Translations under genes and position numbers: made by a program
DNA from: an uncultured Pseudomonadota bacterium
GTDB lineage: Bacteria > Pseudomonadota > Alphaproteobacteria > Rhizobiales > Xanthobacteraceae
Length of the DNA: 32,000 bases
Assembly: GCA_963760995.1 (NCBI GenBank)
Contig: CAVXFJ010000004.1
Coordinates: forward strand, 967,128 to 999,127
Direction: 5' to 3'
Notes under the pieces: model-generated
Told to the model about the DNA's origin: nothing
The model's input: the letters and a program-made list of their open reading frames with translations, nothing else
Databases searched by the model: none
In this document: one piece after another, positions 14,469 to 32,000 of the stretch
Layout of the letters: each line of letters opens with the position of its first letter
How positions within the stretch are numbered: position 1 is the stretch's first letter

Positions 14469-15022
14469 AACGACCGAAAAAAGTCGGCTATGCGGGCAAA
14501 GAAAGCGTCCCTAAGCATAAGCGCTGGTGGGGATCGGGTAAATCTGACCCAGCCGAGGCCAAGCGGATGTTTGGATGCGACCTAACAGGATTCGAAAGTG
14601 ACAGAGCAACAGATTTTGAGTGGCCGCTCCTGTCCGACGAACAAATTCACAGTCATGAGTTCGATGCGGTCGAATACGCCGACCGTACTGGCGATCCTCG
14701 CCGAGTTATAGAATTGGTGCGTGAAAAAGCCGGAAAGTTAGTTGCTGATTATTTGGAGCGCAAGTTGATCCATAAACGCACTCCAATCTACGATCGATCC
14801 CCGCCCGATACGCGTCTTTACAACGCAACAGCGAAGATTGAACAGCTCATTAAAGAGCAGGGCTTTTCTAAAGATGAAGCGATCAAGGAAGTCGTCCGTA
14901 GCGACCACATTCCAGATAAGACATTGCGAAATTTTTTGAGTGGAAAGCGGGGATCAGAACGTCGGATGAGAAAAGGTTTCCGAGGCGCGGCATCCAAGTA
15001 CCCCTCTGGTTCAAAACCCTAG
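14465..15022 (+). CDS. Hypothetical protein (185 aa), translationally coupled to int
   Basis: ATGA overlap with the int stop at 14465-14468. No family recognised. Confidence 0.5.
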   Translation: MKRPKKVGYAGKESVPKHKRWWGSGKSDPAEAKRMFGCDLTGFESDRATDFEWPLLSDEQIHSHEFDAVEYADRTGDPRRVIELVREKAGKLVADYLERKLIHKRTPIYDRSPPDTRLYNATAKIEQLIKEQGFSKDEAIKEVVRSDHIPDKTLRNFLSGKRGSERRMRKGFRGAASKYPSGSKP

Positions 15023-15043
15023 CTGTAATAACAAGTTAGCTTG

Positions 15044-15083
15044 CCGCCCCGATCACCCCCCTGTTCGGGGCGGTTTTGCTTTT
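15044..15083 (+). terminator. Rho-independent terminator
   Basis: 9-bp GC stem CCGCCCCGA (15044-15052) pairs with TCGGGGCGG (15065-15073), followed by TTTTGCTTTT. Confidence 0.7.
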
Positions 15084-15141
15084 CGACGAAACGCGCTTTC
15101 CTCCGGTTTAACTCGAACCCAACCGGAGCGTCGTTTTGCAG

Positions 15142-15351
15142 ATGAAAGAACACCTCAAATATCCGCGGCTAATGCGCATTCACGACGTAGCCGAGTTTTG
15201 TGGCCTACGGCCGACACAAATCTACGAGCATGCCAAGAAAGGCGATTTTCCAAAGCCGATCAAGCTGACCGAAAGCGGCCGAGCTGTGGCGTGGGATGAG
15301 GACGAGTTGATTGCCTGGCGCAATGCGCGCCTAACGGCGCGCGAGGCCTAG
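15142..15351 (+). CDS. alpA: AlpA/Xis-like HTH DNA-binding protein (excisionase or transcriptional regulator)
   Basis: LMRIHDVAEFCGLRPTQIYEHAKKGDFPKPIKLTESGRAVAWDEDELIAWRNAR matches the AlpA/MerR-type phage regulator pattern. The ATG at 15142 is preferred over the TTG at 15136. Confidence 0.8.
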   Translation: MKEHLKYPRLMRIHDVAEFCGLRPTQIYEHAKKGDFPKPIKLTESGRAVAWDEDELIAWRNARLTAREA

Positions 15352-15353
15352 TC

Positions 15354-15692
15354 ATGCCCGCAATGACACTACCTAAGACCCTGGTTCCTGGCGTGGACAA
15401 TCGCGTCGGCGAATTTTGGATTGCCTTCGATAAGGCAGGGCAACGGCGAAAAGTTGTTCCCTATCGTGTGTTTTATGGATTGCATGTCGATATCGTTCTA
15501 ACGGCCGATCACCGGTTCGTCGAGGAGACGGTCACGTATAGCTCGTCTGTAGTACCGCCTGAGACAGGGTGGCGCATATTTCTGGATGACGGCGATACTT
15601 TCGTATGGCGCCGACCACTTACGATCCGCTTGTTGAAGAGCGACACGTCGAAGCTGTTGCGCATGCTTGCTGCCGCTGAAAGGGGCGCGTGA
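15354..15692 (+). CDS. Hypothetical protein (112 aa)
   Basis: Starts 2 nt after the alpA stop. No family recognised. Confidence 0.5.
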   Translation: MPAMTLPKTLVPGVDNRVGEFWIAFDKAGQRRKVVPYRVFYGLHVDIVLTADHRFVEETVTYSSSVVPPETGWRIFLDDGDTFVWRRPLTIRLLKSDTSKLLRMLAAAERGA

Positions 15693-16657
15693 TGGGAGCG
15701 GTGAAAGAGCTCCTCTTCGCCCAAAGCGACCCGAGCATCCACGGCCCGAGAGCTATCCCGCGAATTGATGAAAGCCGCGATCTCACATGGGCCGAGATTA
15801 ATGATGCTACCCGAGGGGCAGTTGGCAAATTTTCTCTGCCCTGCCCATTTTGCGGTCCAGAAATGGCACACTCCTCACGATTTAGAATTGAGCGTCCCAC
15901 CCTCGGTTACGCGCGATGGTATTGTTTCTATTGCGGCGAAAGTGGGTCGCTGAGGCGCAATAGTCCTACCGATCCGAAAAACGAGGCGGCTGCCCGTCGT
16001 GCAGCGGTCGCACGCGAACAAGAGCAGAAAGCTGAAAGGACCGCGCGAGCACTTGCGCTATGGGAAGCTGCCAGCACGATAGTCGGTTCACTGGTAGTCG
16101 ACTATCTGCAGGCGCGCGCCATCCGCGACCTGCCGCCAGATGTCGACGCTGTGCTCCGGTATCACCCTTCTTGCTCCTTTGGGCGCGACGGACCGCGCCC
16201 ATGCATGCTCGCGCTCATGCGCGACGTGCGGACTGATAAGCCGCGCGCCGTGCACAGGACGTGGATCGGTAGTGGCGGCCGAGCACTTGGACGTATGGCG
16301 CTCGGCCCGATTGCCCGCGCTGCCGTGAAGCTGTGGCCGACTGGTGGGCCGAGCCTCGTCGTTGGCGAGGGCATTGAGACTGTGCTCGCCGCCGCTCTCC
16401 ATCTGGAGCGCGCTGACGGCGAGGCGCTGAGGCCTGCATGGGCGCTGACAGTCGCCAACAACTTGACCAGATTCCCGCTAATCCGAGGCGTCCAGCGCCT
16501 CGTAATCCTGACCGACAATGACGTCAGCGGTGTCGGTCAGCGCGCCGCTGAGACGTGCTCTAGCCGTTGGTGCGACGCCGGCCGTCAAACTGTGAAATTG
16601 ATACCGAACCGGCTTGGGGCTGACTTCAATGATGTATTGAAGGAAGCAGCCCTATGA
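15689..16657 (+). CDS. Zinc-ribbon plus Toprim-domain protein (primase-like module)
   Basis: CPFCGPE...WYCFYCGESG forms a four-Cys zinc ribbon. LVVGEGIETVLAA...LVILTDNDVSGVGQRAAE is a Toprim E...DxD pattern. Both the start and the stop overlap neighbouring genes. Confidence 0.7.
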   Translation: MMGAVKELLFAQSDPSIHGPRAIPRIDESRDLTWAEINDATRGAVGKFSLPCPFCGPEMAHSSRFRIERPTLGYARWYCFYCGESGSLRRNSPTDPKNEAAARRAAVAREQEQKAERTARALALWEAASTIVGSLVVDYLQARAIRDLPPDVDAVLRYHPSCSFGRDGPRPCMLALMRDVRTDKPRAVHRTWIGSGGRALGRMALGPIARAAVKLWPTGGPSLVVGEGIETVLAAALHLERADGEALRPAWALTVANNLTRFPLIRGVQRLVILTDNDVSGVGQRAAETCSSRWCDAGRQTVKLIPNRLGADFNDVLKEAAL

Positions 16658-18087
16658 GCCTCGCTGGCGACTTTTCTGAGCAATCCGGCTCTCCATCTCC
16701 CATTTTCTCGGAGAGCGACTTAGCTGATCGCTTTGCTGAGCGACATAAGGCAGAGCTCCGCTATGTCGCGGAATGGAGTCAGTGGTTTTGCTACAACGGC
16801 AAATATTGGAAGAAGGAAAAAACGCTGCTGGCGTTCGATCTCGTGCGTGCTCTCTGCCGCGAGATCGCTCGCGGATGTAACAAATCCGCTGAAGCCAAGG
16901 CGCTGACGAGCGGGAAAACGATCGCAGCTATCGAAAAGATCGCGAAAGCAGATCGGCGTCTCGCTGCCACCATCGACCAGTGGGATCGCGACCCGTGGCT
17001 ATTGAATACACCTGCCGGTGTCGTCGATCTACGGAATGGAAAGATGCGGGAGCATGACCCTGAAGACTACTTGACGAAGATCACCGCCGTGGCGCCCAAA
17101 GGCAAGTGCGCCTTGTGGAAGAGCCATTTGGCTGTTGTCATGGCCGACGACGCAGAGCTGATTGGATTTCTGCAGCGCGCGCTGGGCTATTCCCTGACCG
17201 GCATCACCCGGGAACACGCGCTCTTTTTCGGCCACGGCACCGGGGCTAATGGCAAGGGCACCACGTTTGAGACCGTCGCACACGTGCTTGGCGACTATGC
17301 TCGGACGGCGCCAATGGAAGTGTTCCAGTATTCGTCCATCGACCGGCACCCAACCGAACTCGCCATGTTGCAGGGTGCGCGCTTCGTGACGGCCAGCGAG
17401 ACCGAGGAAGGCCGGGGTTGGGCTGAGAGTAGAATCAAGACGCTCACAGGTGGCGACCGCATCTCTGCAAGGTTTATGCGACAGGATTTTTTCGAGTACT
17501 TGCCCCAATTTAAACTTTGGCTGACGGGAAACCATAAGCCGTCGATTCGCTCGGTCGATGAAGCAATCCGCCGACGCTTCAATCTGATCCCGTTTGCCGT
17601 GACGATTCCGCCCGATAAGCGCGATAAGGAACTTGTGTCGAAGCTGAAGGAGGAGAGCGCAGGGATTTTGGCCTGGATGATCCAGGGCTGCTTGCTTTGG
17701 CAGCAGAACGGCCTCAACCCGCCGCTGGCAGTGAAGCGGGCAACCGATGAATACTTGGCAGCCGAGGACGCGCTGCGCCTGTGGTTTGAGGAGTGCTGCG
17801 TCGTCGACGCGGCAGAGCCGGGTACGTTTACGAGCGAACTATATGAAAGCTGGAAACTCTGGGCCGAAAAGAATGGAGAATACCCGCGCAGCCTGAAAAA
17901 GTTCTCGTTGTCACTAGACGCCAAGAGCAAGGAGCTCGGGATCGAGAAGACGAATGACCTCCGGCGGAAGGGAAACATTTCTGAGTATGTCTGCGGGAAG
18001 ATTGTCTGGAAGGCTGTCGAGAAGCACGGGCGCGGATTTACCGGTGTTCGCCTCAAGACTCATCAAGAAAGCGAACCTCACATATGA
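16654..18087 (+). CDS. P4-family phage/plasmid primase C-terminal region / D5-like SF3 helicase
   Basis: 477 aa with WLLNTPAGVVDLRNG, a Walker A in FFGHGTGANGKGT, then ASETEEG and IPF...IPPDKRDKEL..KLKEE..GILAWMIQGCLLWQQNGL. This is typical of P4 alpha / D5 C-terminal proteins. Confidence 0.85.
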   Translation: MSLAGDFSEQSGSPSPIFSESDLADRFAERHKAELRYVAEWSQWFCYNGKYWKKEKTLLAFDLVRALCREIARGCNKSAEAKALTSGKTIAAIEKIAKADRRLAATIDQWDRDPWLLNTPAGVVDLRNGKMREHDPEDYLTKITAVAPKGKCALWKSHLAVVMADDAELIGFLQRALGYSLTGITREHALFFGHGTGANGKGTTFETVAHVLGDYARTAPMEVFQYSSIDRHPTELAMLQGARFVTASETEEGRGWAESRIKTLTGGDRISARFMRQDFFEYLPQFKLWLTGNHKPSIRSVDEAIRRRFNLIPFAVTIPPDKRDKELVSKLKEESAGILAWMIQGCLLWQQNGLNPPLAVKRATDEYLAAEDALRLWFEECCVVDAAEPGTFTSELYESWKLWAEKNGEYPRSLKKFSLSLDAKSKELGIEKTNDLRRKGNISEYVCGKIVWKAVEKHGRGFTGVRLKTHQESEPHI

Positions 18088-19957: not shown

Positions 19958-20160
19958 AGAATGGCCGACGAAGGCCATTGATGCTTTAGGTCGGAAATGA
20001 CCCACAACGGACGTAGTGTGTGTGTCGCGGCAATCGAAGCAAGGTCGATTTGCGTGGGGGTCGGGGGGCTTTATGCAGCGCGTTCAATCAATGATCAAAC
20101 CCAGTTCGGCAGCGCCGCCGTAAACTCAGATTGACCCATTACGGACTTTTCTATCCAATG

Positions 20161-20183
20161 AAAAGCGGCCCCGAAGGACCGCT
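20161..20183 (-). terminator. Rho-independent terminator of the 20207-20821 gene
   Basis: The reverse strand reads GCGGTCC-TTCG-GGGCCGC followed by TTTT. Confidence 0.7.
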
Positions 20184-20206
20184 GATCTCATACATCGATT
20201 GCCCGC

Positions 20207-20821
20207 TTAGGCTGGTTTGGGTGCTTTGCGCTGCCTAGGCCGACTAATCATTGTAAAAAACCCAAGTCCGCCTGCCAGGAGTGGCAATGTGGTAGGCAGT
20301 GGGACGGGCGAGACAGACCCAACCCTGATGGTAATGTTGTCGCCTGTCACGACGTTGTAGATTGTGTCGCCCAGATTGAGACCAAGACTGGAAAGTGTCG
20401 CACCGACGAACGTCATCGACCCATTCAGCGCCGAACCAAAAATATAGTCCGAAGACAGGAAGATGTGAGGTCCTGCCTTAGCAAAAAAATCACCAGACGA
20501 ACTCGTTGCAAATATGTTGCTAGTTGACCCATAGGGATCGGACGCGTTGGAAACGACGTTGTAATATCCGACCACGGATTGTGACGTGCCCAACGAGTTC
20601 CTAAAGAACCCTACCGTTGGCGAAATTTGTGGACCAAAGCTGAACGTAGGGGTGGTATAATCGATCGTTTCTCCAGACAAATCCATCGATCCGCTCAGGG
20701 TAGCGACAACGTCCCCGCCGGATTCCTGAAAGGCGATCAATACTGAAGCTTTCGCGGGAACAATCGCTAACATCGCCGATGCACAAAGGCCTGCGGCGAC
20801 CAATATTTTTCTAAACATCAT
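20207..20821 (-). CDS. Secreted protein with a VPLPA/PEP-CTERM-type C-terminal sorting signal
   Basis: Signal peptide MMFRKILVAAGLCASAMLAIVPAKA. The C-terminus is VSPVPLPTTLPLLAGGLGFFTMISRPRQRK, i.e. motif, TM helix and basic tail. GGAGGA lies 6 nt before the ATG at 20821. Confidence 0.75.
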   Translation of the reverse strand: MMFRKILVAAGLCASAMLAIVPAKASVLIAFQESGGDVVATLSGSMDLSGETIDYTTPTFSFGPQISPTVGFFRNSLGTSQSVVGYYNVVSNASDPYGSTSNIFATSSSGDFFAKAGPHIFLSSDYIFGSALNGSMTFVGATLSSLGLNLGDTIYNVVTGDNITIRVGSVSPVPLPTTLPLLAGGLGFFTMISRPRQRKAPKPA

Positions 20822-21362
20822 TTGAAATCCTCCCATTGTTTCGGTCCCACCCCGCTACTCGAGTACAAGTTTCAGTATGCCATCTGAATTTTCCAAAGAG
20901 TGAGCTGAACTTAAATCCACCCGATGCCTAGCTTGTTGAGATGGGATTGCCGCCATGAACGACCATATCGCCGCAAAATTCGACTTGGCATAAAATCGGC
21001 GTGAATAAGAGCGGCCTACGCGGACATGTCGTGTGTGGCGCCGGTAAAGATGTCGCAGCTCAAGCCTACATTCAATACTACTTCTAAGTGACTGGTGGGG
21101 ATTCCGCTTAATGTCCTACCGGTGCCGGTGATTATGACCGCGAGCGGAGCCGTTACGTCGTCAAACTTTGACAACCGAGCAACGGTCTACTTTTACACGC
21201 CGTATGGTAGCACACTCCTGCGACATAAATTCTTCGCAAATAAACTAAATCCTGCCGACTTGGTATAGACGGCGCCGCCATTAGCGGGCATGATGGCAAA
21301 GTGGCATCGTGTGCGTGATTGCGTCAGCCGTTGACGCTTTGACGCGTTGTTTGGGGCGTAAA

Positions 21363-22004
21363 ATGAAAACTAATTTGTTTAGTATTATTGCGTTGCTGTT
21401 TGTGTTCGGGATTGCCGAAAAAGCAAGAGCAAGCCCAATTGACATGAGCTACACTGTGACCGGTTCTCCGGGAAGTTGGGTCTATGATTTTTCTTTCACC
21501 AATAACCTTGGGAGCCCCAGTGAGATTTACTCTGTTGGGGTAAGGCTAAACAGCCCTGATTCTAGTAGTATCGTCTACCCAATCGGTTGGTTTGCAGGAA
21601 GTCCCGGAGGGTGGAATTGGTTTGGCTACGGTGGGTCAAATACCAATTACAATGCTCTCTGGGTTACCTGTACTACGGGAAGTTGCCCTTCAAATTGGCC
21701 AGTAAGTCAACCCGCAATTGGGTCTGGCCAAACAATGAGCGGCTTTCAAGTGATGGATACTGCTCAAAGTACATTAACCAGTGTGAGTTGGTATGCCGTG
21801 ACCTACGGTTACTACGCACCCCCGCAAACCGGATGCAGCTTTATATGCCAAGCCCCTTATAGCAATCCGGGATTTGAAGGTTTGGCGACACTTGCGACTT
21901 CCGAAACGCCTCTCCCGTCTGCGCTCCCGCTTTTCGCGTCTGGGCTTGGTGCTTTGGGTTTTCTCGGCTGGCGCAGGAAGCGGAAAACTCAGCTAGCAGC
22001 CTGA
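21363..22004 (+). CDS. Secreted VPLPA/PEP-CTERM-type protein, paralog 1
   Basis: Signal peptide MKTNLFSIIALLFVFGIAEKARA. The C-terminus is TPLPSALPLFASGLGALGFLGWRRKRK. Collinear with the 22405-23070 product. Confidence 0.8.
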   Translation: MKTNLFSIIALLFVFGIAEKARASPIDMSYTVTGSPGSWVYDFSFTNNLGSPSEIYSVGVRLNSPDSSSIVYPIGWFAGSPGGWNWFGYGGSNTNYNALWVTCTTGSCPSNWPVSQPAIGSGQTMSGFQVMDTAQSTLTSVSWYAVTYGYYAPPQTGCSFICQAPYSNPGFEGLATLATSETPLPSALPLFASGLGALGFLGWRRKRKTQLAA

Positions 22005-22028
22005 TCACTAACTTTTTTGTGGCACGGA

Positions 22029-22059
22029 GGGACCGCCGCAGCTGGCGGTCTCTCTTTTT
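22029..22059 (+). terminator. Rho-independent terminator
   Basis: GACCGCC-gcagct-GGCGGTC followed by TCTCTTTTT. Confidence 0.7.
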
Positions 22060-22404
22060 GCGATGTGTGCTGCAAGTGCGTCGGTCGCGAATGGCCCATC
22101 GCGATATTCCGCTGTGATGCAAAGCCATGTCCGGTCTTGGGGCAACAGCCGACATAGGGCGGCGCCGTGCGCTCAATGGGTCGGTAGCGTTTGACCCATG
22201 TGCCACATTAATCAAGACACTGGCCCTAAAACAGTTTAACGTGCGAGCGCGGTCAGGAAAATTGACCGAGAGTTGCATAAAAAATGGCGACTTGCCGAAG
22301 TCCCCGTTCCTTCAATTGGCAGCCGAGTGCCCATCGGCAGGCTTGACGACGCCTTAGCTCTTGCGCGTTCGCCATGGTGGCGCCGCCATCCGAAGGGGAC
22401 GACA

Positions 22405-23070
22405 ATGAAACCATTTATGAAGCTGACGCTGAAAGCGAAAATATTCGGTTTTATTGCGCTGCTGTTTCTGTTGGGGAATTCCGAAGCAACGCAAGCAAAC
22501 CCGGTCGACGTGAGTTACACGGTTTCCGGTTCTGCGGGAAACTGGGTCTATGATTTTTCAGTCACCAACAACCTTGGAAGCGGTACCGCGATTTACTATG
22601 TTGGGGCCAGCCTGCCTAATTCTGTTACAGGCAGCATTGTTTATCCTACCGGCTGGTATGCACCAGCCGTTACCAGCCAGAATTGGGGCGGTAATCCCTA
22701 CAATGGGTCAGGTACTGAGTACAATGATCTCTGGATTACCTGCTCCTCCTCGGCCGTTTGCAATAACCAATATGGAATATTCAATGGCCAAACCTTGAGC
22801 GGCTTTCAAATATCGGATTCTGGTTTGACCGCGCTGACGAGTGTAAGTTGGTTTGCAGTGGATGCCGGTTACTACGGTCCACCACAAACGGGTTGCAGCT
22901 TTATCTGTGGCGCTCCATATACCAATCCCGGGTTTGAAGGTTTAGCGATGGCCGCGATCTCAGGAACCCCGCTCCCTGCCGCTCTCCCGCTGTTCGCGTC
23001 AGGCTTGGGCACATTGGGGCTGCTTGGCTGGCGCAGGAAGCGGAAGAAGGACGCTGCGCCCGCAGCCTGA
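22405..23070 (+). CDS. Secreted VPLPA/PEP-CTERM-type protein, paralog 2
   Basis: Signal peptide ...IFGFIALLFLLGNSEATQA. The C-terminus is TPLPAALPLFASGLGTLGLLGWRRKRK. The ATG at 22405 is preceded by AAGGGGA. Confidence 0.8.
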   Translation: MKPFMKLTLKAKIFGFIALLFLLGNSEATQANPVDVSYTVSGSAGNWVYDFSVTNNLGSGTAIYYVGASLPNSVTGSIVYPTGWYAPAVTSQNWGGNPYNGSGTEYNDLWITCSSSAVCNNQYGIFNGQTLSGFQISDSGLTALTSVSWFAVDAGYYGPPQTGCSFICGAPYTNPGFEGLAMAAISGTPLPAALPLFASGLGTLGLLGWRRKRKKDAAPAA

Positions 23071-23097
23071 CCCAAATATTTTGTTTGTGGCACCGAA

Positions 23098-23126
23098 GGA
23101 CCGCCGCCTTGGCGGTTCTTTTTTGT
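23098..23126 (+). terminator. Rho-independent terminator, paralogous to 22029-22059
   Basis: GGACCGCC-gcctt-GGCGGTTC followed by TTTTTTG. Confidence 0.7.
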
Positions 23127-23149
23127 GCGCGGAAACGAATGACGCGATA

Positions 23150-23209
23150 TGGCCCATCCCAGCCATTCGCTAGTCGTCGGCAATTAGGCAATAGCGGAAG
23201 TGCGGCCTC
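23150..23209. repeat. About 60-nt intergenic repeat, copy 1
   Basis: TGGCCCATCCCAGCCATTCGCTAGTCGTCGGCAATTAGGCAATAGCGGAAGTGCGGCCTC. By eye most positions match 24421-24480. Confidence 0.7.
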
Positions 23210-23383
23210 ACCCTCAACAATGGACTGTGCTCGCGGTGCACTCCTGAACATCATTTAATTCTCTGCTCGAAGCAAAGGCCGAAGCTGCTCGGCTCGACTT
23301 TCACGCGCAAAAGAACTTTGTATTGCGTTTTCTTCAATGACCATTTCAAAACCCACGAGTAGAAACCTTCACGACAGCACAAA

Positions 23384-23788
23384 TCATAACGGTACTGGTA
23401 TCATTATATACCGCAGATGCGACTTTGGCGGCTCACAGGCAATGCCATCATTGTCCGCGTCATTGTGGCTCCAATATCCTGGTTGACCTCGTCGCGCAGG
23501 TGACAAACCCATAGCCTCAACCGCATTGCAGCTGGGAAACGAAATAAGGTGCTTCAAAGTTAGACCTACTGGCCACGGACTGGCTAGCAAGTACCAAACA
23601 AACGCAAAGCTACATATTGCAGTTACAACTGGAAACCACGACGCATAAATGAACTTTTTTAATCGGGACAATTGGTCCTGTCGGCGTGATACGCTGCTGA
23701 AGCGCCGTTTTAGCTCGCGCAGTCTTTTATCCGCGCCTGTAATATCGTTGTGAACAATGTTAGGTAGAAGCGATTTTTTTCCCGCCAT
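23384..23788 (-). CDS. Membrane-anchored protein with a C-terminal Excalibur-like calcium-binding motif
   Basis: TM helix WFPVVTAICSFAFVWYLLA. The C-terminal NDADNDGIACEP matches the DxDxDGxxCE Excalibur signature. Confidence 0.65.
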   Translation of the reverse strand: MAGKKSLLPNIVHNDITGADKRLRELKRRFSSVSRRQDQLSRLKKFIYASWFPVVTAICSFAFVWYLLASPWPVGLTLKHLISFPSCNAVEAMGLSPARRGQPGYWSHNDADNDGIACEPPKSHLRYIMIPVPL

Positions 23789-23845
23789 GGCTACCCCTCA
23801 CAGACATTTAACGCCAAAGCGCACACTGGAGCAGTCCGCACCGGC

Positions 23846-24238
23846 TTAATGTGTGAAAGGTCTCACGCTTTGGGCCGCAATTTCGTTATAGAACGTGTAG
23901 GACCCGACGTGCCGGACCTCCTGAAATACACCTTTCACCTCCAGTGGGTCGCCATTCATGATATTGGGGTGACCCCAAGTAAATACCTTTACGCCACCCC
24001 CTGCTGTGTCCCGAAGCTGGAAAGTTGAGTAATCATTGCCAGCTCGGGAGGTTGTTTCCCGGACCTCATCAGCAGTTCCATGGACAGAGACACTCTTTCC
24101 ATCGAACTGAGAGGGATTTGAAGCTATAGCGGCGACACTAGCGGGAAGAGTAGCAGGTTCGGCTGAACAGCCGACAGGGATGAGCAGCAGAAATGCATTC
24201 GCTAAGAGCCATGGACCTTTAGCTTTTATTTGTGTCAC
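23846..24238 (-). CDS. Putative secreted protein or lipoprotein (130 aa)
   Basis: GTG start with GGAG upstream. Signal-like N-terminus WLLANAFLLLIPVGCSAEP with a possible non-canonical lipobox. No family recognised. Confidence 0.5.
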   Translation of the reverse strand: MTQIKAKGPWLLANAFLLLIPVGCSAEPATLPASVAAIASNPSQFDGKSVSVHGTADEVRETTSRAGNDYSTFQLRDTAGGGVKVFTWGHPNIMNGDPLEVKGVFQEVRHVGSYTFYNEIAAQSVRPFTH

Positions 24239-24420
24239 CGTGCTCCCTCTCGCCTAACCTGTACATTGTCTTTACTAACATTCGATCAGCATGCCTGATC
24301 TATATAAAAGTAGGCGACATACAATTCGATAAACAAATTGTTTAAAAGGCAAAGCTAATTCGAAGCGTAGCATTTGTTCTGTCTGTGCCCTTAAACGCAA
24401 GAACGTGGGGTTGATGGCAC

Positions 24421-24480
24421 TGGCCCATCACTGCTATTCGCTACGTCGTCGACAAATAGACAATAGCGGACATGCGGCCT
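24421..24480. repeat. About 60-nt intergenic repeat, copy 2
   Basis: TGGCCCATCACTGCTATTCGCTACGTCGTCGACAAATAGACAATAGCGGACATGCGGCCTC. Confidence 0.7.
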
Positions 24481-24500
24481 CGTCTTAAATCTGCTCTCTC

Positions 24501-24843
24501 TCAAATCGAGGGCCGTCTCGCCAATGTCAGTATTCGCGGCCTACCATATCCATTGCAACGTCGGCAGCACAGGTCGCGCAATGCGAGACGAATCAAAGTC
24601 GCGCGGCTTCACTCACAAATCCAAATCGACAACAGTCTCGCAAGTGTCGCAGGCGATGACTATCCAAGGATGCTTTGCATACTTTGACGTTTGATTTTGC
24701 GATGTTAATTTTTTGCCGACCATCGTGCCGATTATCTGCCGGTCTATCGCCGATGATTTACCGCGACAGTGCCTGTCGGAAACACCTAGACTTCCGTCAC
24801 TGATTAGGGAGAGCGTGCACGGCCTCTCAGCTTTATCAATCAC
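24501..24843 (-). pseudogene. Decayed paralog of the 26626-26976 zinc-ribbon gene (in-frame stop plus frameshift)
   Basis: The reverse strand reads KHPWIVIACDTCETVVDLDL*VKPRDFDSS. After a frameshift it continues ALRDLCCRRCNGYGRPRILTLARRPSI*. The intact copy reads RHPWLVIACEGCGMVTDMDLRVKPRDPEAS...ALRDFRCPRCNGHGRPRVTALARSASI*. Confidence 0.75.
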
Positions 24844-25613
24844 TGAAGCCCTGCATGGTGTAGTAGTTCTTCAATTGCTATTCTAAAATCAGATTGAACC
24901 CTCTCGATATCCTCGTGGCGGGCAATAAAGAAACGGCCATGCGCGGAGACATGTCCAAGGTCTTTTAATTTTGGAAGAGCTTTTTTTGTATTCCGTGACA
25001 ATGGTAACGCTTGTTCATTACACGCCAATTCAACTAGTTTTGTTAATTGGAAGTAATTGCCGTCGGCGCTCTTAATCTTGTGAGCGATACCTTTTGTTTC
25101 GAAAGCCTCGATTATGCCGATCTCCAATAGCCGTCGCATCATGACCATGCTCGCATCGCGCCAACCATGTTGATAACAGCCGTTCAGTTGGCGACCGATC
25201 GCGATAATATAAGGACGCTTAAAATCATCGAGAATTGAGGGTGGAATGAAATTTATAGAGGATGTTGACGTTTGTGTCGGCGCGGCCGTTTTGCGGGAAA
25301 GTCGCCTCAGCGCGGATGTTAACTCGCGTTGAGCACGCAACCGATCTCCCGACGAAGCATTGTGATGGAAAACATTGGCCAGCAATTCGGCAAAGGCCGT
25401 AGCATCGCCTGTCGAGAGAGTTGGCAGCTGCTCGAACGCTTCCGTCGCTTGTGATTTCAGGTCGGCAAATTTATTTCCGTAATGGTTGTCTCCAGACAGC
25501 GATTTTCGATTTCGTCGCGCTTTTTTAGCAACTAACAGCGCCTGTTGAGTGAGATCTTGTAGCAAGGATACTGGCGTCACGTGGTCATCGTCGCTCAACC
25601 TGCGAGTAACCAT
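24840..25613 (-). CDS. Hypothetical protein (257 aa); the C-terminal half resembles DUF4145/HEPN-like domains (weak call)
   Basis: AT-rich ORF. GCYQHGWRDASMVMMRRLLEIGIIEAF ... LKDLGHVSAHGRFFIARHEDIE resembles the helical DUF4145 pattern, which normally ends in a GN..aH-type motif. The start lies 3 nt after the upstream gene's stop. Confidence 0.5.
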   Translation of the reverse strand: MVTRRLSDDDHVTPVSLLQDLTQQALLVAKKARRNRKSLSGDNHYGNKFADLKSQATEAFEQLPTLSTGDATAFAELLANVFHHNASSGDRLRAQRELTSALRRLSRKTAAPTQTSTSSINFIPPSILDDFKRPYIIAIGRQLNGCYQHGWRDASMVMMRRLLEIGIIEAFETKGIAHKIKSADGNYFQLTKLVELACNEQALPLSRNTKKALPKLKDLGHVSAHGRFFIARHEDIERVQSDFRIAIEELLHHAGLQ

Positions 25614-25616
25614 GTG

Positions 25617-26036
25617 TCACCAAGGAGAATACAGATAGGTATTGTTTTCGCCTTTGTGTCGGCGCAATACCTTGGCTTTGCATAGACGCATCAGCGGCGT
25701 GCTCAGCCCCGTAATTGCTATATGGTGCCCACGATTTCCGAGCTCTGCCTTAACTTCAGATATCGTTTTAGGCCTTTTGAAAAAGCCATCACCGAGCAAT
25801 TCTTGTAAATACTGGGTTGGCCCACCGCGCGCCGCTCCTCGCAAATTCTCGCGCCTCTTCTTAGCCGACACCTTTCGGCGTTTGGCCGGGGCATTGCTTT
25901 CTTCATTGTCCTGCTTGGTGCTCAGAAGGTCATCCAAGACTTTCTGGAAAGCGATTTGTTTCAACGAAGGGTCTGAAACCGAGTTCACCGCCTTCTCGGC
26001 CTGTTTCACCAACTGCTCATAATTGTCTTTAGCCAT
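25617..26036 (-). CDS. Hypothetical protein (139 aa) with a Lys/Arg-rich linker and a possible C-terminal winged-helix domain
   Basis: The internal ATG (complement of 26034-26036), giving MAKDNYEQLVKQAEK, is preferred over the track start at 26129. No family recognised. Confidence 0.5.
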   Translation of the reverse strand: MAKDNYEQLVKQAEKAVNSVSDPSLKQIAFQKVLDDLLSTKQDNEESNAPAKRRKVSAKKRRENLRGAARGGPTQYLQELLGDGFFKRPKTISEVKAELGNRGHHIAITGLSTPLMRLCKAKVLRRHKGENNTYLYSPW

Positions 26037-26976: not shown

Positions 26977-27841
26977 GTGGAAGCCGGTTTGCGACCGAGC
27001 GAGCCCGTGCATCTTCGCTTCTTGACGAGCCGGCCGGGTCATCGGCCTGTACCAGGATGCTCGAGCCCTCCTGTCAGTCCGGCGGGAAAACCAAAAGGCA
27101 CATCCGGCTGACGCCCATTGTTCGGCACCAAAGAAGCGGTTGGCTAAGGTGCCGAACGGCCATTTCCATGGAACGAGAATCCACTCGAGCTCGTTCAATA
27201 ACAAGATTATCAAGAACCCGATGATCGCGATGACGAAAAGCCCGACATATATGCGCTCTCGAGCCTAACTGTGCCGGAGGCTAGTACAGGCTGAACCCTA
27301 GCGTCGGGGCCACAAGCAAATCCGTGGCCGCGACTTGAATTCGCATGCATTTGGCCCCCGTCGACTGAGCGACCCTAAAGCCGAGTTTGAACCATTTGCT
27401 TCTCGCGGGCGAGAAGGCGGTGTCGCGCCGGTGCGAAACCGGTTCATATTATTATTGAGTCTTATTATAGCTTTCAGCAGTCGGTTCTCACACCACAGGC
27501 TGCTGCCGAGTTAGGAGCGGACGTTAGGCGGAGGCCGTGGCTGGACGGCTCGTAATCCATAATTCGCAAAGCAAGACTGCAGTTGCGCAGCAGCACGAGG
27601 CGACCCAGAGAGGCTAGCCGTGCATGACGATTGATCAGGGTCAATGCCGGGCTGGCTCGAACTAATTAGTCTAACAAATTAGTTTTCGGAAGACGCCTAT
27701 CATGACGCTTTGAGCAGAGTAACGGCACGCAGAACATCCTTCATAGCTGCCATCATTCTGATGCCGTCGCTAGCCGCGCGGATTGCAACCGCGAAACGGA
27801 AAGCTTTACGAGACGCTGATCGCAATTTTTATTGGCCCCCC

Positions 27842-28963
27842 ATGCGCCTGAAGAAGCTCGCGACCATAGTCGGAGTCCTGATCATCGATATAGCGGTCGC
27901 GGTCGTGGCAATCGAGGCGTTAGCTTGGCTTTTGGGCTACAACCAAAGCGCCGGCAAATATCCCCACGGCCCTCTCGTCTTCCTGAAGGGAAGAGGGACG
28001 GTGATCGAACGGCATGGCAATGCGTTCACCTACGCTCCACACATGCAAGGCCGCAACGTCAACATTCATTATTCGGATGCGGACTTCGAAATCGATTTCG
28101 ACTACAGATTTCCAACCAACAATCTAGGCTTGGTGCAGACAAACGACGTTGTACCGGACAAGAAGTCGCTGCTCGTCGTGGGCGATTCCTACACCGAGGG
28201 CGTGGGCTCGCCGCCCTGGTTCGCCAAGCTCGCGCCCACGATAGAGAAGCACGGTCTGCAGCCGATTAATGGGGGCTTGCGCGGGACCGGCTTTCACATG
28301 TGGTGGCAGCTCATCCAGCATCTGCAGCGGCAAGGCCTGCAGATCGCCAAGCTGGTCGTCATCTTCACGTCTCCAGACTTCACCGCGCCACCCATGTCGT
28401 TTCCGGACGCTTATTTGAAGTGCCTTTCGGCGCCTGTTCTCAAAAATTGTAACCTCGAGGACTATTTCTTTATGCCGCTTCCGGGTCGTGACCAGTTACC
28501 GTTTTGGGTCGACCGGATCCGAAAAGCGCGAGCCGCCTGGGCCCTCGACGAGCAGACATGGATCGAGCAAAGATTAAAGGCGGCGATGCCAACGAGCTAT
28601 CGCATCTACGACTTCTTACGGCAAGAGATCGTGCCACCATCCGAGCCGACCGACGAAGAGACTGACGATGAAGCGTCGTCGCGCGCTGCCTTGCAGGCCA
28701 TGGCAAAGCGGTTCGGCATCGAGAATATTCTGTTCATTCATGTACCGATCAAAAACGAGCGAAGTCCGGAGCCGATCGGCTTGCGGGCTCGCTCCGCGAT
28801 CGCCGCGATCGGCGGCCAGTTTGTCGATGGTTTCCTGCGCTGCGGGCTTTCTCTCTCCGACTATCACGAATTCGACGGGCATCCGAACGAGGCCGGTTAT
28901 CGAAAGCTCACCATTTGTGTGACGCAGGCCATCGACCGTTTCGCGGCAAACCGGATTCACTGA
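27842..28963 (+). CDS. Membrane-anchored SGNH/GDSL-family hydrolase
   Basis: N-terminal TM helix LATIVGVLIIDIAVAVVAIEALAWLL. Block I is LLVVGDSYTEGVGS and block V is FDGHPNEAGY (DxxH). The ATG at 27842 is preferred over the TTG at 27710. Confidence 0.7.
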   Translation: MRLKKLATIVGVLIIDIAVAVVAIEALAWLLGYNQSAGKYPHGPLVFLKGRGTVIERHGNAFTYAPHMQGRNVNIHYSDADFEIDFDYRFPTNNLGLVQTNDVVPDKKSLLVVGDSYTEGVGSPPWFAKLAPTIEKHGLQPINGGLRGTGFHMWWQLIQHLQRQGLQIAKLVVIFTSPDFTAPPMSFPDAYLKCLSAPVLKNCNLEDYFFMPLPGRDQLPFWVDRIRKARAAWALDEQTWIEQRLKAAMPTSYRIYDFLRQEIVPPSEPTDEETDDEASSRAALQAMAKRFGIENILFIHVPIKNERSPEPIGLRARSAIAAIGGQFVDGFLRCGLSLSDYHEFDGHPNEAGYRKLTICVTQAIDRFAANRIH

Positions 28964-29086
28964 ACTCACGGCCTGCAACCGTCAGATGTGTTTAGGCGGG
29001 GACTGTCGACGGCGACGTCGTTGACGCAGATCAATGCCAACATTGCCGAATTTGGAGTTACTTATCGCCTTTCGATGGAGGACGAG

Positions 29087-29227
29087 ATGAGGACCAGAAA
29101 GACTGCTACAAAGCGTGGTTACGTTCGTCCGCAAATGCGCACCGTGGTCACCCCGAAGGAAATCCGGGACATCGACCAGCCGTGTGCCTTCGTCGAGCGG
29201 AAGAAGAAGAGGCGCGGCGGAAAATAA
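29087..29227 (+). CDS. Candidate small peptide or RiPP precursor (46 aa, MRTRKTATKRGYVRPQMRTVVTPKEIRDIDQPCAFVERKKKRRGGK)
   Basis: ATG at 29087 preceded by GGAGGA with a 5-nt spacer. The ORF lies immediately upstream of the radical SAM gene. A GC hairpin at 29238-29260 follows it. The peptide has a single Cys. Whether it is really coding is unproven. Confidence 0.4.
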   Translation: MRTRKTATKRGYVRPQMRTVVTPKEIRDIDQPCAFVERKKKRRGGK

Positions 29228-29237
29228 AACCCATGGT

Positions 29238-29260
29238 GCGGGCCGGCGATGTCGGCCCGC
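29238..29260 (+). promoter_or_regulatory. Stable GC hairpin between the small ORF and the radical SAM gene (possible partial terminator or attenuator)
   Basis: GCGGGCCG (29238-29245), loop GCGATGT, CGGCCCGC (29253-29260). It is followed by a C/T-rich tract rather than a clean T-run. Confidence 0.45.
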
Positions 29261-29304
29261 CCCCTTCTTCCCGGCATCATCCGCCATCCACCGAAGCTTG
29301 CGCC

Positions 29305-30924
29305 ATGAACGAGCGGGCAACGGTTTCTTCTCCCCACCTTCGCGATTTTTGCGTTTCGGGCCGTCACTACCTCGTAAACGGCTCGACCGGCCAGGCTTTT
29401 GAGGTCGACGACGGCGACGCCCGGCAATCCAAGTCAGCCATATCGTTCGGCGACCTGCGACAATTTGGCCATCTCGATGCCGCGGACAGCCGGTCGCTCG
29501 ATGCCAACCCGCCGCCTACCGGGATCGGCTCCGTCCTGTTGAACGTGACGCACCACTGCAATCTGGCTTGCGCCTATTGCATCATGGCGATGCCCGATTT
29601 GCAGCTGGCCTATCGCGACGAAAAGGGATCGCTGAACGAAAGCACCGGCAAGGCCAGCATCGATTTCCTGGCCAAGGCCGGCTATCGCGACGTCGTCAGC
29701 CTCACTTTCTTTGGCGGCGAGCCGCTGCTGAAATTCGATCTGATCAAAAAGCTCGTGGAATATGCCGAGAGCGAATATCCTGGGCGGTTCAGCTATCAGC
29801 TCATCACCAATGGCTGCCTGATGCGGCCGGAGATGTACGACTTCTTCCGCACCTACCGATTTTCGCTTCTCTGGAGTCTTGACGGCGAACCTGAGGTGCA
29901 CGATCGGCTGCGGCGCTTCAAGAAATCCGGCGACGGGAGCGTCTTCGCCCAGTCGTTCGCGGCGCTGCAGGATTTTCGCGCCGCGTGCCCGGAATGCCCC
30001 GTCGGCGTGAATGTCACCTATTTCAAGCAAACCGTGGAGCTGCCAGCGGCTCTGCATTTCTTCCACAGCCACGGCATCGAGGCAATTCGCATGGATCGCG
30101 GCCTGGTGCCGCGCGACAGCCCGCACGCAGTGGGCGTCGAGGAGACGGCGCGAGTCAAGGCGCAGCTCTCACAGGTCGCCGAAGAGTACCTCGATATGTT
30201 GTTGCGCGGCGAAGTCTTCAGCCTCAATCCCTTCGTCAACTACATGCGGATCATTTCGAAGCGCCTGCCGCGCTCGCGCGCCTGCAACAGCGGCTTGGAC
30301 TATGTGACCATTGCTGCCACCGGCGACATCTACTCCTGCTACAAGCTGCTTGGGCTCGCAGATTGCCGACTGGGCGACGTCTATCAGGGCTACGAGCGCG
30401 AGACGTCGATGCGGCTGTGGGAACGGCTGGATGTGGCCGAACGTCCGGGCTGTAGCAGCTGTTGGGCGCGATTCATCTGCGCCGGCGGCTGCGCCGCCGA
30501 CAACCGTCACCTCAACAATTCCTATGTCGCGCCGGCGCGGGAAAACTGCCTCATCTTCCTGCACGCGATCGAGCTTTCGATCCACATCTACTTCTCGCTA
30601 CTTGAGCGGGCCCCGCAGACCCTGAAGACCTTGCTCGCAGACGAGCATCTGCTCGACGAGGACCGTCCGCTGCGCCGCGGCGACTTTGGGCGCGCCGACA
30701 ACGACGGCAACTTCATCAATAAAGAAACCGGCGCAGTCTATCAGCTCAACGAAGCGGCGGCGCGGATTTACGCTTTATGCGACGGCGAGCATTCACTGGC
30801 CGACATCGCGTCGGCCGTTGCGGAGGACTACGACATCCCGCTGGGTCTGGCCTTGCTGGATTGCCGCGAGCAGATTTTCCGCATGGCCAAGACCGGGCTC
30901 GTCACCGTTCCGGCCGGATTGTAG
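29305..30924 (+). CDS. Radical SAM / SPASM-domain peptide-modifying enzyme with a fused C-terminal PqqD-like (RRE) domain
   Basis: CX3CX2C motif CNLACAYC at 29557-29580. Auxiliary-cluster Cys region CNSGLDYVTIAATGDIYSCYKL...RPGCSSCWARFICAGGCAADN. The C-terminal roughly 70 aa, GAVYQLNEAAARIYALCDGEHSLADIASAVAEDYDIPLGLALLDCREQIFRMAKTGLV, looks like PqqD. The ATG at 29305 is preferred over 29182. Confidence 0.85.
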   Translation: MNERATVSSPHLRDFCVSGRHYLVNGSTGQAFEVDDGDARQSKSAISFGDLRQFGHLDAADSRSLDANPPPTGIGSVLLNVTHHCNLACAYCIMAMPDLQLAYRDEKGSLNESTGKASIDFLAKAGYRDVVSLTFFGGEPLLKFDLIKKLVEYAESEYPGRFSYQLITNGCLMRPEMYDFFRTYRFSLLWSLDGEPEVHDRLRRFKKSGDGSVFAQSFAALQDFRAACPECPVGVNVTYFKQTVELPAALHFFHSHGIEAIRMDRGLVPRDSPHAVGVEETARVKAQLSQVAEEYLDMLLRGEVFSLNPFVNYMRIISKRLPRSRACNSGLDYVTIAATGDIYSCYKLLGLADCRLGDVYQGYERETSMRLWERLDVAERPGCSSCWARFICAGGCAADNRHLNNSYVAPARENCLIFLHAIELSIHIYFSLLERAPQTLKTLLADEHLLDEDRPLRRGDFGRADNDGNFINKETGAVYQLNEAAARIYALCDGEHSLADIASAVAEDYDIPLGLALLDCREQIFRMAKTGLVTVPAGL

Positions 30925-30951
30925 CGGGGGTCAATCCCAGGAGAGTCATCG

Positions 30952-31227
30952 ATGTCTCCACGCCGTCGACTTAAATCGTCTCTGCTGGTGACCGAAAAGA
31001 ACGAGCAACTCTTCGCGCTCGATACCGATAACGGGCGCGTGCACGAGCTCAATGTCACGGCCAAGGCCATTTTCGAGCTCTTTCGCGAGCCGTGCGAGGA
31101 AGAAGAAGCGGCCGCCGAATTCGCCCGCACCTTCGACGTTCCGTACGAGCAGGCGCTCGAGGACGTGCGCGACATGCTGGAGCGGTTCCGTAACAATGAC
31201 CTGCTCGAATTGAGCGCATTTGAATGA
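30952..31227 (+). CDS. Stand-alone PqqD-family (RiPP recognition element-like) protein
   Basis: 91 aa: EQLFALDTDNGRVHELNVTAKAIFELFREPCEEEEAAAEFARTFDVPYEQALEDVRDMLERFRNNDLL. AGGAGAG SD lies 7 nt upstream. Confidence 0.75.
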   Translation: MSPRRRLKSSLLVTEKNEQLFALDTDNGRVHELNVTAKAIFELFREPCEEEEAAAEFARTFDVPYEQALEDVRDMLERFRNNDLLELSAFE

Positions 31228-32000
31228 ATGGAGAATGCCTGACCATTCGCGTGGGCGACCAGACCTACGCACTGGAGAGCGCGGCGCCCGAAGACCTGGC
31301 TTATTTTGCGCGCGCCTATGCCGCCTGCCCTGGGAACCCCGCCGAGGTCACGGCCCGCTTTCTGCTCACGCACGTCGGAGCGCCATGGCAGGTGCATATC
31401 GGCGGCAAGATCTTCGCCGAGGGGCCGTTCGACCGGGTCGTGCGGCTGCTCGACTGGGAGTTGTCGCGGCGCGCTATCAAACAGGATTCGCCCTGTGCCG
31501 CATTCCACGCCGCTTGGATCGCGCGCGATCGGCAGGCGGCCATGCTTGCCGGCAAAGGTGGCGCTGGCAAGAGCCATCTTTGTCTGCAATTGGTGGACCA
31601 TGGTTTCGACTATGGTGCCGAGGATGTGACGTTCTGCAGCGGAAGCCGGCTGCTGCCGTTCCCGCGGGCTATCCAATTGCGCAAGAGCGACCCAATCCTC
31701 GAACGTATTGCGCCCGAGCGCCTTTTCGTCGGTTATGACGGCCGCATCTGCGTTGAGGTGCCGCGGCAAACAACTGCAATGGAAGCCGCCGCCGACAATC
31801 TGACGGTTATTTTTCTCGATCCCACGGCCACTACGAGCTCTGTGCAACCGCTGACCGCCTTCGAAGGTTTGCAGCGGCTGTTCGCGCTTTGCCACCGGCT
31901 GGACCGGGTCACCGCGCCCTTGTTCGACACGGTCGCGGGTCTTGCCGCGGCCGGCCGTATGTATGCCGTCCCGCAGCGCAACGCGGCGCATGCGATTCGA
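31224..32000 (+). CDS. HPr kinase/phosphorylase C-terminal-domain-like (HprK-related) P-loop kinase; 3' end beyond the window
   Basis: Not in the ORF track because no stop occurs before the edge. The ATG at 31224 overlaps the PqqD stop (ATGA). Hand translation gives MNGECLTIRVGDQTYALESAAP...AFHAAWIARDRQAAMLAGKGGAGKSHLCLQLVDHGFDYGAEDVTF..., open for 259 codons. It parallels the HprK pattern G.SG.GKSE.AL.L...GH.L.ADD. Confidence 0.75.
   Translation, partial: MNGECLTIRVGDQTYALESAAPEDLAYFARAYAACPGNPAEVTARFLLTHVGAPWQVHIGGKIFAEGPFDRVVRLLDWELSRRAIKQDSPCAAFHAAWIARDRQAAMLAGKGGAGKSHLCLQLVDHGFDYGAEDVTFCSGSRLLPFPRAIQLRKSDPILERIAPERLFVGYDGRICVEVPRQTTAMEAAADNLTVIFLDPTATTSSVQPLTAFEGLQRLFALCHRLDRVTAPLFDTVAGLAAAGRMYAVPQRNAAHAIR

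Follow-up and report, generated by a model that had tools for sequence, protein, structure and literature searches.

Are a radical S-adenosylmethionine (SAM) enzyme and an HprK-type kinase used in one pathway to modify the same ribosomal peptide? This question was raised by the 3' end of a 32,000-nt stretch of contig CAVXFJ010000004.1 (positions 967,128 to 999,127), hereafter called the window, to which all coordinates refer unless a locus is named. A gene cluster lies there on the plus strand, from 29077 to the window edge, and a preliminary description of this DNA had proposed that it encodes a peptide made by the ribosome and modified after translation (RiPP). The end of the window was read as the 5' half of an uncharacterised RiPP pathway, in which a precursor would be modified by the radical SAM enzyme, the kinase, and a methyltransferase. 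The probability of this reading was estimated at about 0.7. The following features of the cluster were assigned.

29077..29082, plus strand: Shine-Dalgarno sequence GGAGGA of the precursor gene, read from the sequence, 4 nt 5' of the ATG
29087..29227, plus strand: precursor peptide gene, 46 aa, co-conserved with the radical SAM gene and carrying the leader-type motif Y12-x-x-P15-x-M17
29238..29260, plus strand: GC-rich stem-loop between the precursor and enzyme genes (predicted fold; 10-bp stem, 3-nt loop, no T tract)
29305..30924, plus strand: radical SAM/SPASM peptide maturase with a fused C-terminal PqqD domain, i.e., a RiPP recognition element (RRE), 539 aa (Pfam and NCBIfam matches, invariant cysteines, CteB as the best PDB match)
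29557-29580, plus strand: CX3CX2C motif of the maturase (CNLACAYC, residues 85-92)
30283-30549, plus strand: SPASM domain TIGR04085 of the maturase, residues 327-415 (49.9 bits, cut-off 27)
30718-30903, plus strand: C-terminal PqqD domain PF05402 of the maturase, residues 472-533 (39.8 bits, cut-off 23.4)
30952..31227, plus strand: free-standing PqqD-type RRE, 91 aa (PF05402, 47.6 bits, cut-off 23.4)
31224..32000, plus strand: HprK-like P-loop kinase, 258 of 267 codons in the window, running off the edge (profile search against PDB, fold, and motifs)
31551-31574, plus strand: Walker A motif GKGGAGKS of the kinase, residues 110-117

Gene cluster and precursor peptide

Related loci (L001-L006, L083, L092-L099, and the P0012 contig) were compared with the window; their source labels are partly based on metagenome-assembled genomes (MAGs). 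The neighbourhood of radical SAM-PqqD, free PqqD, and kinase genes, on which the preliminary description had built its proposal, was found in every locus long enough to hold it, i.e., in 13 loci from at least 10 distinct sources and in the window itself. A class I methyltransferase gene accompanied the three genes in the 13 loci. These loci were labelled as Alphaproteobacteria, Desulfobacterota/Thermodesulfobacteriota, and Negativicutes. The genome loci comprised Desulfobulbus alkaliphilus (L002), Blastochloris sulfoviridis DSM 729 (L003), a Thermodesulfobacteriota MAG (L004), and two Negativicutes MAGs (L005 and L006). Mis-binning may lie behind two further labels, those of a Bacteroidales MAG and of a Methylacidiphilales MAG, which had 70-72% identity to the radical SAM enzyme of the window. 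When genomes were scanned with the radical SAM alignment, mainly unrelated SPASM enzymes were returned, and the family members were L003-L006 only.

The typical gene order was precursor, radical SAM-PqqD, methyltransferase 1, GAF protein, PqqD, kinase, methyltransferase 2, ABC ATPase, two ABC-2 permeases, and zinc peptidase. This order, in some cases cut by the contig end, was found in L002, L003, L004, L005, L006, L083, L093, L094, the P0012 contig, L095/L096, and L099. The ABC-2 exporter, i.e., three genes, and the methyltransferase-GAF pair were present in most clusters. The M1/M61-type zinc peptidase came next in 8 of the 8 loci with enough contig, and the HExxH-x18-E motif was present in all five cluster peptidases that were translated, with weak, sub-threshold Pfam M1/M61 matches. 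A separate clade, L097/L098, carried the precursor, radical SAM-PqqD, PqqD, kinase, methyltransferase 2, and peptidase genes only. Because the clade is reduced to these, the six genes were regarded as the invariant core, and the exporter and the methyltransferase-GAF pair as optional. In the same clade, a gene for a B12-binding radical SAM protein was placed directly 5' of the precursor gene (L097 7625-9565, L098 391-2331); its product may methylate this peptide at carbon, as a C-methyltransferase.

The flanking genes differed in every genome, and the cluster boundaries were set on this ground. The preliminary description, whose view stopped at the window edge, had stated that the cluster continues past it, and this was borne out. 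L001, a 2.9-kb contig from a near-identical strain, supplied the full-length kinase and continued the window with the kinase, a methyltransferase, and the start of an ABC ATPase gene, while the relatives added the zinc peptidase. The methyltransferase, the exporter, the peptidase, and the loss of two accessory genes from the window copy were thus known from relatives. L001 was also the only exact sequence match of the window PqqD and of the kinase (P0122), and no exact match was obtained for the radical SAM protein, P0001, and P0006. The features of the cluster lie far beyond chance, and its peptide, enzymes, and gene order recur in unrelated genomes.

The precursor of the window, MRTRKTATKRGYVRPQMRTVVTPKEIRDIDQPCAFVERKKKRRGGK, contains 16 Lys/Arg against 4 Asp/Glu residues, in agreement with the very basic 46-codon open reading frame (ORF) behind a strong Shine-Dalgarno sequence that had been described before. 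An alternative ATG was present at 29075, and 29087 was favoured because the homologous start in L003 holds only the second Met. By tblastn, the precursor ORF was found directly 5' of the radical SAM gene in L002-L006, i.e., in all five genome loci. A metagenome scan seeded with the peptide alone returned 10 loci, of which nine had the radical SAM gene directly downstream and one ended at the peptide. No Pfam or NCBIfam model matched the precursor.

Over 16 distinct precursors, 12 residues were invariant, i.e., Y12, P15, T19, T22, E25, R27, D28, Q31, P32, C33, A34, and F35, giving the shared pattern Y..P...T..T..E.RD..QPCAF. C33 is the sole Cys of the precursor. Position 17 was occupied by M, V, or I, and the resulting Y-x-x-P-x-M/V/I has the same spacing as [Y/W]xxPx[L/V/I/F/A], which is recognized by the discrete RREs of lasso peptides and by the RRE of the linear polyphosphorylated peptides (LPP; PMC13381572). 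The N-terminus and the basic tail after F35 were variable. The 24-residue block from Y12 to F35 was near-invariant from Alphaproteobacteria to Negativicutes; 15-23 of its 24 residues (63-96%) were identical to the window, against 38-80% for the enzymes, with the lowest values at about 38-45%.

Such conservation across phyla is the opposite of that in most RiPPs, and it raises the alternative that the product is not secreted but stays in the cell as a modified peptide, or is a cofactor derived from a peptide, as are pyrroloquinoline quinone (PQQ) and mycofactocin. The missing ABC exporter of L097/L098 and the match of the maturase C-terminal domain to PqqC/D (5sxy) would agree with it. However, a three-gene ABC-2 exporter is present in most clusters, and the related loci showed no dehydrogenase or other cofactor-using enzyme conserved beside the cluster, where the flanks vary by genome. 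The sparseness of the maturase family, i.e., 29 clusters among 5.8 billion sequences, also fits an accessory trait better. The cofactor alternative was judged fairly improbable.

Some precursor genes departed from the common arrangement. The Negativicutes clusters held two different precursors each (L005 9767-9964 and 12155-12367; L006 5245-5421 and 7477-7689), the second gene following that of the radical SAM enzyme and preceding that of methyltransferase 1, and two precursor copies were found in each of Sporomusaceae and Veillonellaceae. A metagenomic precursor, L092 184-555, runs past the conserved block into a Pro/Cys-rich tail of about 85 residues, which may come from a fusion or a frameshift or may be another core.

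The GC hairpin named in the preliminary description was confirmed between the precursor and maturase genes. Hairpins of other sequence hold the same place 3' of the precursor gene in L094, L093, and L004. The stem-loop was not flagged by an intrinsic terminator scan, because it has no T tract. It is probably an attenuator or an mRNA-stability element.

Radical SAM enzyme, recognition elements, and kinase

For Radical_SAM (PF04055; cut-off 29.5), the maturase scored 42 bits. The CNLACAYC motif, the SPASM Cys cluster, and the PqqD-like C-terminus, all recognized in the preliminary description, were recovered with every domain above its family cut-off. The ten Fe-S cysteines, i.e., C85/89/92 and C327/345/383/386/392/396/415, were invariant in 26 homologues. 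In a search of the 5.8 billion sequences, the 29 clusters of the family scored at least 375 bits, and all of them carried the C-terminal PqqD domain. The next matches, at 179 bits, were SCIFF maturases.

The best named families in NCBIfam were the thioether formers SCIFF (E = 2e-56), PapB (2.5e-53), and QhpD (2.1e-51), with the nif11-type maturase at a similar level (1.5e-51). The models of the cyclophane-forming YhhB, DynA, DarW, and HxsB also matched, with E = 1e-15 to 1e-24. No NCBIfam model matched a cluster component at its cut-off except the generic SPASM domain. In a search of the PDB with the family profile, CteB (5wgg) was by far the first match (E = 1.7e-78, 267.8 bits), the next one reaching 77.8 bits, and CteB was also the first match of the structural model in Foldseek.

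The preliminary description had named a grouping with anaerobic sulfatase-maturing enzymes (anSMEs) next to sulfatases as a refuting result. In this alternative, the maturase would be an anSME beside which PqqD and kinase lie by accident. The anSME is a SPASM relative (E = 9.4e-21 with the sulfatase maturase model) and the second match by fold. However, the TIGR03942 score was 74.3 bits against a cut-off of 349, and the profile search gave the anSME E = 3e-14, which places CteB ahead by 64 orders of magnitude. There was no sulfatase nearby, the upstream neighbour showing a weak SGNH/GDSL match only, and both the neighbourhood and its own peptide are conserved across phyla. This alternative was regarded as refuted, with a negligible remaining probability.

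The C-terminal part of the maturase profile matched the lasso RRE TfuB1, besides PqqC/D. In the structural model, with a predicted local distance difference test (pLDDT) score of 88, three strands followed by three helices were found at residues 462-529, a predicted RRE topology. At the N-terminus (residues 1-65, 29305-29500), where CteB has its RRE, the model showed a truncated element with one helix and three strands. At this place (alignment A1, columns 60-100), the sequences of more distant family members, P0016-P0029, are longer by 20-30 residues. Sequence and model together suggest that a full CteB-type N-terminal RRE was lost after the C-terminal PqqD domain was acquired.

The second RRE is the separate 91-aa PqqD-like protein, for which, as for the C-terminal extension, the earlier assignment held when tested against the Pfam threshold. 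None of the three outcomes by which the preliminary description was to be refuted, i.e., a grouping with sulfatase maturases, a neighbourhood not kept in other genomes, and PqqD regions without an RRE fold, was thus observed. Its best NCBIfam match was the lasso PqqD chaperone NF033530 (E = 2.1e-10, 40.7 bits, cut-off 70), and it shared 28% identity with the maturase C-terminal domain. In all related loci, its gene was directly 5' of the kinase gene. The start of the kinase overlaps the PqqD stop as ATGA, i.e., a translational coupling.

The kinase had been described from its GKGGAGKS motif, together with this overlap. Both were found, and support for the kinase assignment came from the PDB profile search and the fold, whereas the evidence from hidden Markov models alone was weak. 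HprK_rel_A (TIGR04352) scored 39.7 bits against 200 and Pfam Hpr_kinase_C gave E = 0.055; other weak matches were HprK-related kinase B and ScmC (TIGR04249, 18.2 bits against 125, P-loop region only). Twelve homologues shared FHAAW, the Walker A motif, GAEDV, PFPR, and DGR, and these motifs were kept in the most distant cluster members. With the kinase profile, the best PDB sequences were the HPr kinases 3tqf, 1ko7, and 1jb1, aligned over FHAAW...GxGGxGKS...GAEDV, i.e., over the conserved His, the P-loop, and the acidic pair. The AlphaFold model (pLDDT 93.4) matched ATP-PEPCK and HprK/P in Foldseek. ATP-PEPCK and HprK/P belong to one fold class. From profile and model, the P-loop protein is assigned to the HPr kinase/phosphorylase-like fold, with phosphotransfer as its predicted activity.

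Among 1.84 billion representatives, the kinase profile found 3,616 relatives at E <= 0.001 and six at E <= 1e-30, by which the cluster kinase appears as a small separate subfamily. The wider relatives were sub-threshold HprK_rel_A-like proteins. One member of the wider superfamily, P0172, fuses the kinase to a lasso-type PqqD domain, so the two domains are independently linked. Three kinase homologues (P0127, P0128, and P0134) carry a precomputed PF27840 assignment, and the Pfam search of the cluster kinase gave no PF27840 match. A 387-aa ORF on the minus strand, 30828-31991, runs antisense to the PqqD and kinase genes. It is most likely not a gene, as it overlaps conserved plus-strand genes in GC-rich DNA.

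Proposed pathway and the copy in the window

The hairpin behind the precursor gene would keep precursor mRNA above enzyme mRNA. The Y12-x-x-P15-x-M/V/I motif would serve as a leader signal of the lasso/LPP type and be bound by the PqqD domains, of which the fused one may tether the peptide to the maturase and the free one present it to the kinase. The maturase, with three Fe-S clusters, would form a thioether between C33 and a carbon of a second invariant residue, the candidates being D28, D/E30, E25, and T22. This step follows CteB, PapB, and QhpD, which form Cys-Thr, Cys-Asp, and Cys-Glu thioethers (PMC8326336; PMC9413430). The kinase would phosphorylate an invariant hydroxyl, most likely that of T19 or T22, as HprK-like kinases of the paeninodin/lasso and LPP systems phosphorylate Ser of their precursors (PMC13381572). 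The methyltransferase would methylate the peptide. Finally, the leader would be trimmed by the zinc peptidase, M1 and M61 enzymes being known RiPP leader peptidases (PMC10885120), and the product exported by the ABC-2 pump.

Several points weigh against this pathway. All of its chemical steps, i.e., the thioether at Cys33, the phosphorylation of Thr, and the methylation, are predicted from family resemblance. The maturase scored far below the cut-offs of all named maturase families, e.g., SCIFF (TIGR03974) with 191.7 bits against 425 and the PapB type (NF047865) with 181.4 against 340, so its reaction may differ from theirs. After C33, only A34 and F35 are conserved, whereas the motifs of CteB, PapB, and QhpD have the acceptor after the Cys; the acceptor would therefore lie upstream of C33, or the reaction is not a thioether formation. 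The precursors have no conserved Ser, the residue modified by the known HprK kinases of RiPP systems. Conservation extends over an unusually long part of the peptide, which blurs the boundary between leader and core. Export is not universal, since L097/L098 are without the exporter. As for the hairpin, it is without a T tract, and the 80-nt segment around it folded no better than shuffled sequences (z = -1.4).

It is reasonable, on some of these points, to consider that the maturase makes no Cys thioether but a C-C or C-O cross-link at F35, of the cyclophane or streptide type, or catalyses an epimerisation or an oxidation of Cys33, with the rest of the pathway unchanged. The low scores for the named families, the invariant A34 and F35 beside C33, the matches of YhhB, DynA, DarW, and HxsB, and the lack, in contrast to PapB with its CX3D/E motifs (PMC9413430), of a conserved acceptor after the Cys agree with such a chemistry. 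Yet thioether families match at least 30 orders of magnitude better than C-C formers, CteB leads the solved relatives by a wide margin, i.e., 267.8 against 77.8 bits, and a thioether is the simplest reason for a single Cys to be invariant. Another chemistry of the maturase was considered unlikely, although with appreciable weight.

A further alternative concerns the HprK-like protein, which may leave no phosphate on the product. Class III and IV lanthipeptide synthetases act by phosphorylation followed by elimination. Likewise, a Thr could be activated for elimination and the dehydro residue attacked by Cys33 in a lanthionine-like manner, or the protein could do no more than assist the free RRE, as its ATP-dependent partner or scaffold. 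The invariant T19 and T22 stand upstream of the sole Cys, and the absence of a conserved Ser, the residue used by characterised RiPP HprK kinases (PMC13381572), would also suit this proposal. However, the conserved genes of the cluster include none of a lyase type, and the HprK Walker A motif, His, and acidic pair are kept in distant members, as in a working phosphotransferase. A ring closed by Michael addition would also make a dedicated radical SAM enzyme needless. The probability that no phosphate is left was taken as quite low, and the thioether and Thr phosphate were retained as the preferred predictions.

The copy in the window differs from its relatives. In a DNA alignment with L094, an 80%-identical relative, a clean gap of about 1.34 kb was found (window 30917-30938 against L094 2329-3668), by which methyltransferase 1 and the GAF gene are gone. 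This pair was present in all close relatives. L001, an independent sample, has the same reduced form, with one amino acid difference over 242 aligned maturase residues. The copy is a natural reduced version of the cluster without the methyltransferase-GAF pair. The peptide tail of the window also departs from the common CAFY-x-PGE form. A simple link between the loss of the pair and the loss of Tyr36 was considered and rejected: L083 has the pair together with Arg36, and L097 lacks the pair and has Thr at position 36.

Mobile DNA was recognized upstream of the cluster, and a weak lipase-like ORF directly before it.

13191-14468: tyrosine integrase with an arm-binding domain
15689-16657: Toprim/DUF7146 primase-like protein
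16654-18087: D5_N/DUF5906 helicase-primase
27710-28963: SGNH-like ORF, 417 aa, with a hydrophobic N-terminus (weak, sub-cutoff SGNH/GDSL lipase match)

The genes at 13191-18087, which lie 11-16 kb upstream of the cluster, together resemble an integrative mobile element, and the window held no tRNA gene as the mark of an integration site. The GC content was 0.49-0.53 at 20000-26000 and about 0.60 elsewhere in the window. The ORFs of this low-GC region had no Pfam match save a PEP-CTERM-tailed protein at 21309-22004, and the region is probably foreign DNA of the same island. The ORF at 27710-28963 was rejected as a cluster member and is probably unrelated to it, as the related loci contain nothing equivalent and the DNA homology of L094 with the window begins at 29020.

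These surroundings, the 1.34-kb loss, and the unusual peptide tail could be taken as signs that the window copy is a decaying remnant beside mobile DNA, which makes nothing. On the other side, the remaining ORFs of the window are intact with all catalytic residues present, and the deletion is clean and leaves the PqqD ribosome-binding site preserved. The same architecture occurs in the second sample, L001, and the independent clade L097/L098 is naturally ordered as radical SAM, PqqD, kinase, and methyltransferase. A decaying remnant was thus held to be very doubtful.

Known systems and significance of the family

The SCIFF/ranthipeptide systems (CteB-CteA, and PapB and QhpD) share with the cluster a radical SAM/SPASM enzyme with three Fe-S clusters, an adjacent small Cys-containing precursor, and RRE-guided recognition. 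However, the SCIFF score of the maturase is less than half of the CteB-type cut-off and the PapB score is likewise low. The window precursor has one Cys where a SCIFF precursor has six in about 45 residues, and it is without the CX3D/E motif of PapB. The working RRE is fused C-terminally, in contrast to CteB, whose type of N-terminal RRE is truncated here. Beyond the SCIFF gene set, the cluster also has genes for a kinase, methyltransferase(s), and a peptidase. With scores far below the cut-offs and the wrong Cys pattern, membership in SCIFF and PapB was rejected.

A free PqqD-type RRE beside an HprK-like kinase, a YxxP-x-hydrophobic leader motif, and an exporter are shared with the LPP family and the paeninodin-type lasso peptides (PMC13381572). 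Unlike LPP, the related loci are without the signal-peptidase-like LppS, the NTP transferase, and the MsbA-type pump, and have a gluzincin peptidase and an ABC-2 pump instead. Also, neither system has a radical SAM enzyme, and the cluster has no conserved Ser for phosphorylation. The cluster was not placed in LPP: the RRE, the HprK-like kinase, and the leader motif were found, but the remaining genes are absent from the related loci. Nor was it placed among the lasso peptide clusters, as no Asn-synthetase-like cyclase and no transglutaminase-like B2 protease were found among the called genes of the related loci.

Pairs of HprK-related kinase and PqqD had been described as catalogued without a function. 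Models for the pair do exist, i.e., the uncharacterised HPr-rel-A system (kinase TIGR04352 and PqqD TIGR04353). The RRE-plus-HprK module itself was characterised in paeninodin-type lasso peptides and, in 2026, in the LPP family (PMC13381572). The window proteins match HPr-rel-A weakly, with 22.6 bits against 35 for PqqD besides the kinase score of 39.7 against 200, and membership was rejected. The SynChlorMet cassette, likewise catalogued and uncharacterised, comprises two radical SAM/SPASM proteins and a PqqD homologue. Its ScmC match, 18.2 bits against 125, excluded membership as well, although this weak match may give the pairing of radical SAM enzyme and kinase some precedent. Both systems differ from the cluster in the precursor and the accessory genes.

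PQQ and mycofactocin pathways likewise have a SPASM radical SAM enzyme with a PqqD-type domain, a short, highly conserved precursor, and a zinc peptidase. In contrast to them, the cluster has no equivalent of PqqB/C or MftD/E/F and no Glu/Tyr or C-terminal Val-Tyr motif; it has a kinase, methyltransferases, and usually an exporter, and its family is very sparse. The AplP-like M1/M61 leader peptidases of class III/IV lanthipeptides (PMC10885120) share the HExxH-x18-E gluzincin motif of the relatives' clusters. By analogy, the gluzincin of the relatives is plausibly an endo- and aminopeptidase trimming the leader. In difference from AplP, its Pfam matches were sub-threshold only, and it is seen in the relatives, beyond the window edge.

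The cluster hence borrows a cross-linking module known from CteB systems and an RRE-kinase module known from LPP and paeninodin, yet fails membership in SCIFF, PapB, anSME, HPr-rel-A, SynChlorMet, lasso, and LPP. The earlier statement that no characterised RiPP class pairs a radical SAM enzyme with an HprK-type kinase agreed with the literature searched, in which no description of such a pair was found and the related papers concerned lasso peptides and the LPP family. In a compendium of about 15,000 RiPP radical SAM enzymes, no kinase was mentioned. From the conserved sequences and their gene order, the cluster appears to be a well-supported, uncharacterised RiPP family, rare but widely scattered. 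More tentatively, at somewhat less than even odds, it may represent an undescribed RiPP class, in which a radical SAM cross-link at the sole Cys, an HprK-type phosphate on a Thr, and a methyl group would be combined, and two RREs would read one lasso-like leader motif while serving different enzymes. As part of this proposal, the conservation of the block would suggest that the target in the cell is conserved or that the peptide acts like a cofactor, and not that it is an arms-race antibiotic.

New RiPP families are frequent, so the cluster is a strong lead and no surprise in kind. With its compact six-gene core and two optional modules, it could serve to study how one leader motif is used by two RREs and how the order of the enzymes is set, a question raised by the 2026 LPP paper. 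The cluster is within reach of experiments, with a short precursor and with the full gene set in two cultured organisms, Blastochloris sulfoviridis DSM 729 and Desulfobulbus alkaliphilus. If the proposed pathway is true, it would be the first to join radical SAM cross-linking and HprK-type phosphorylation on one ribosomal peptide, and its kinase would be the first HprK-type RiPP kinase acting on a residue other than Ser.

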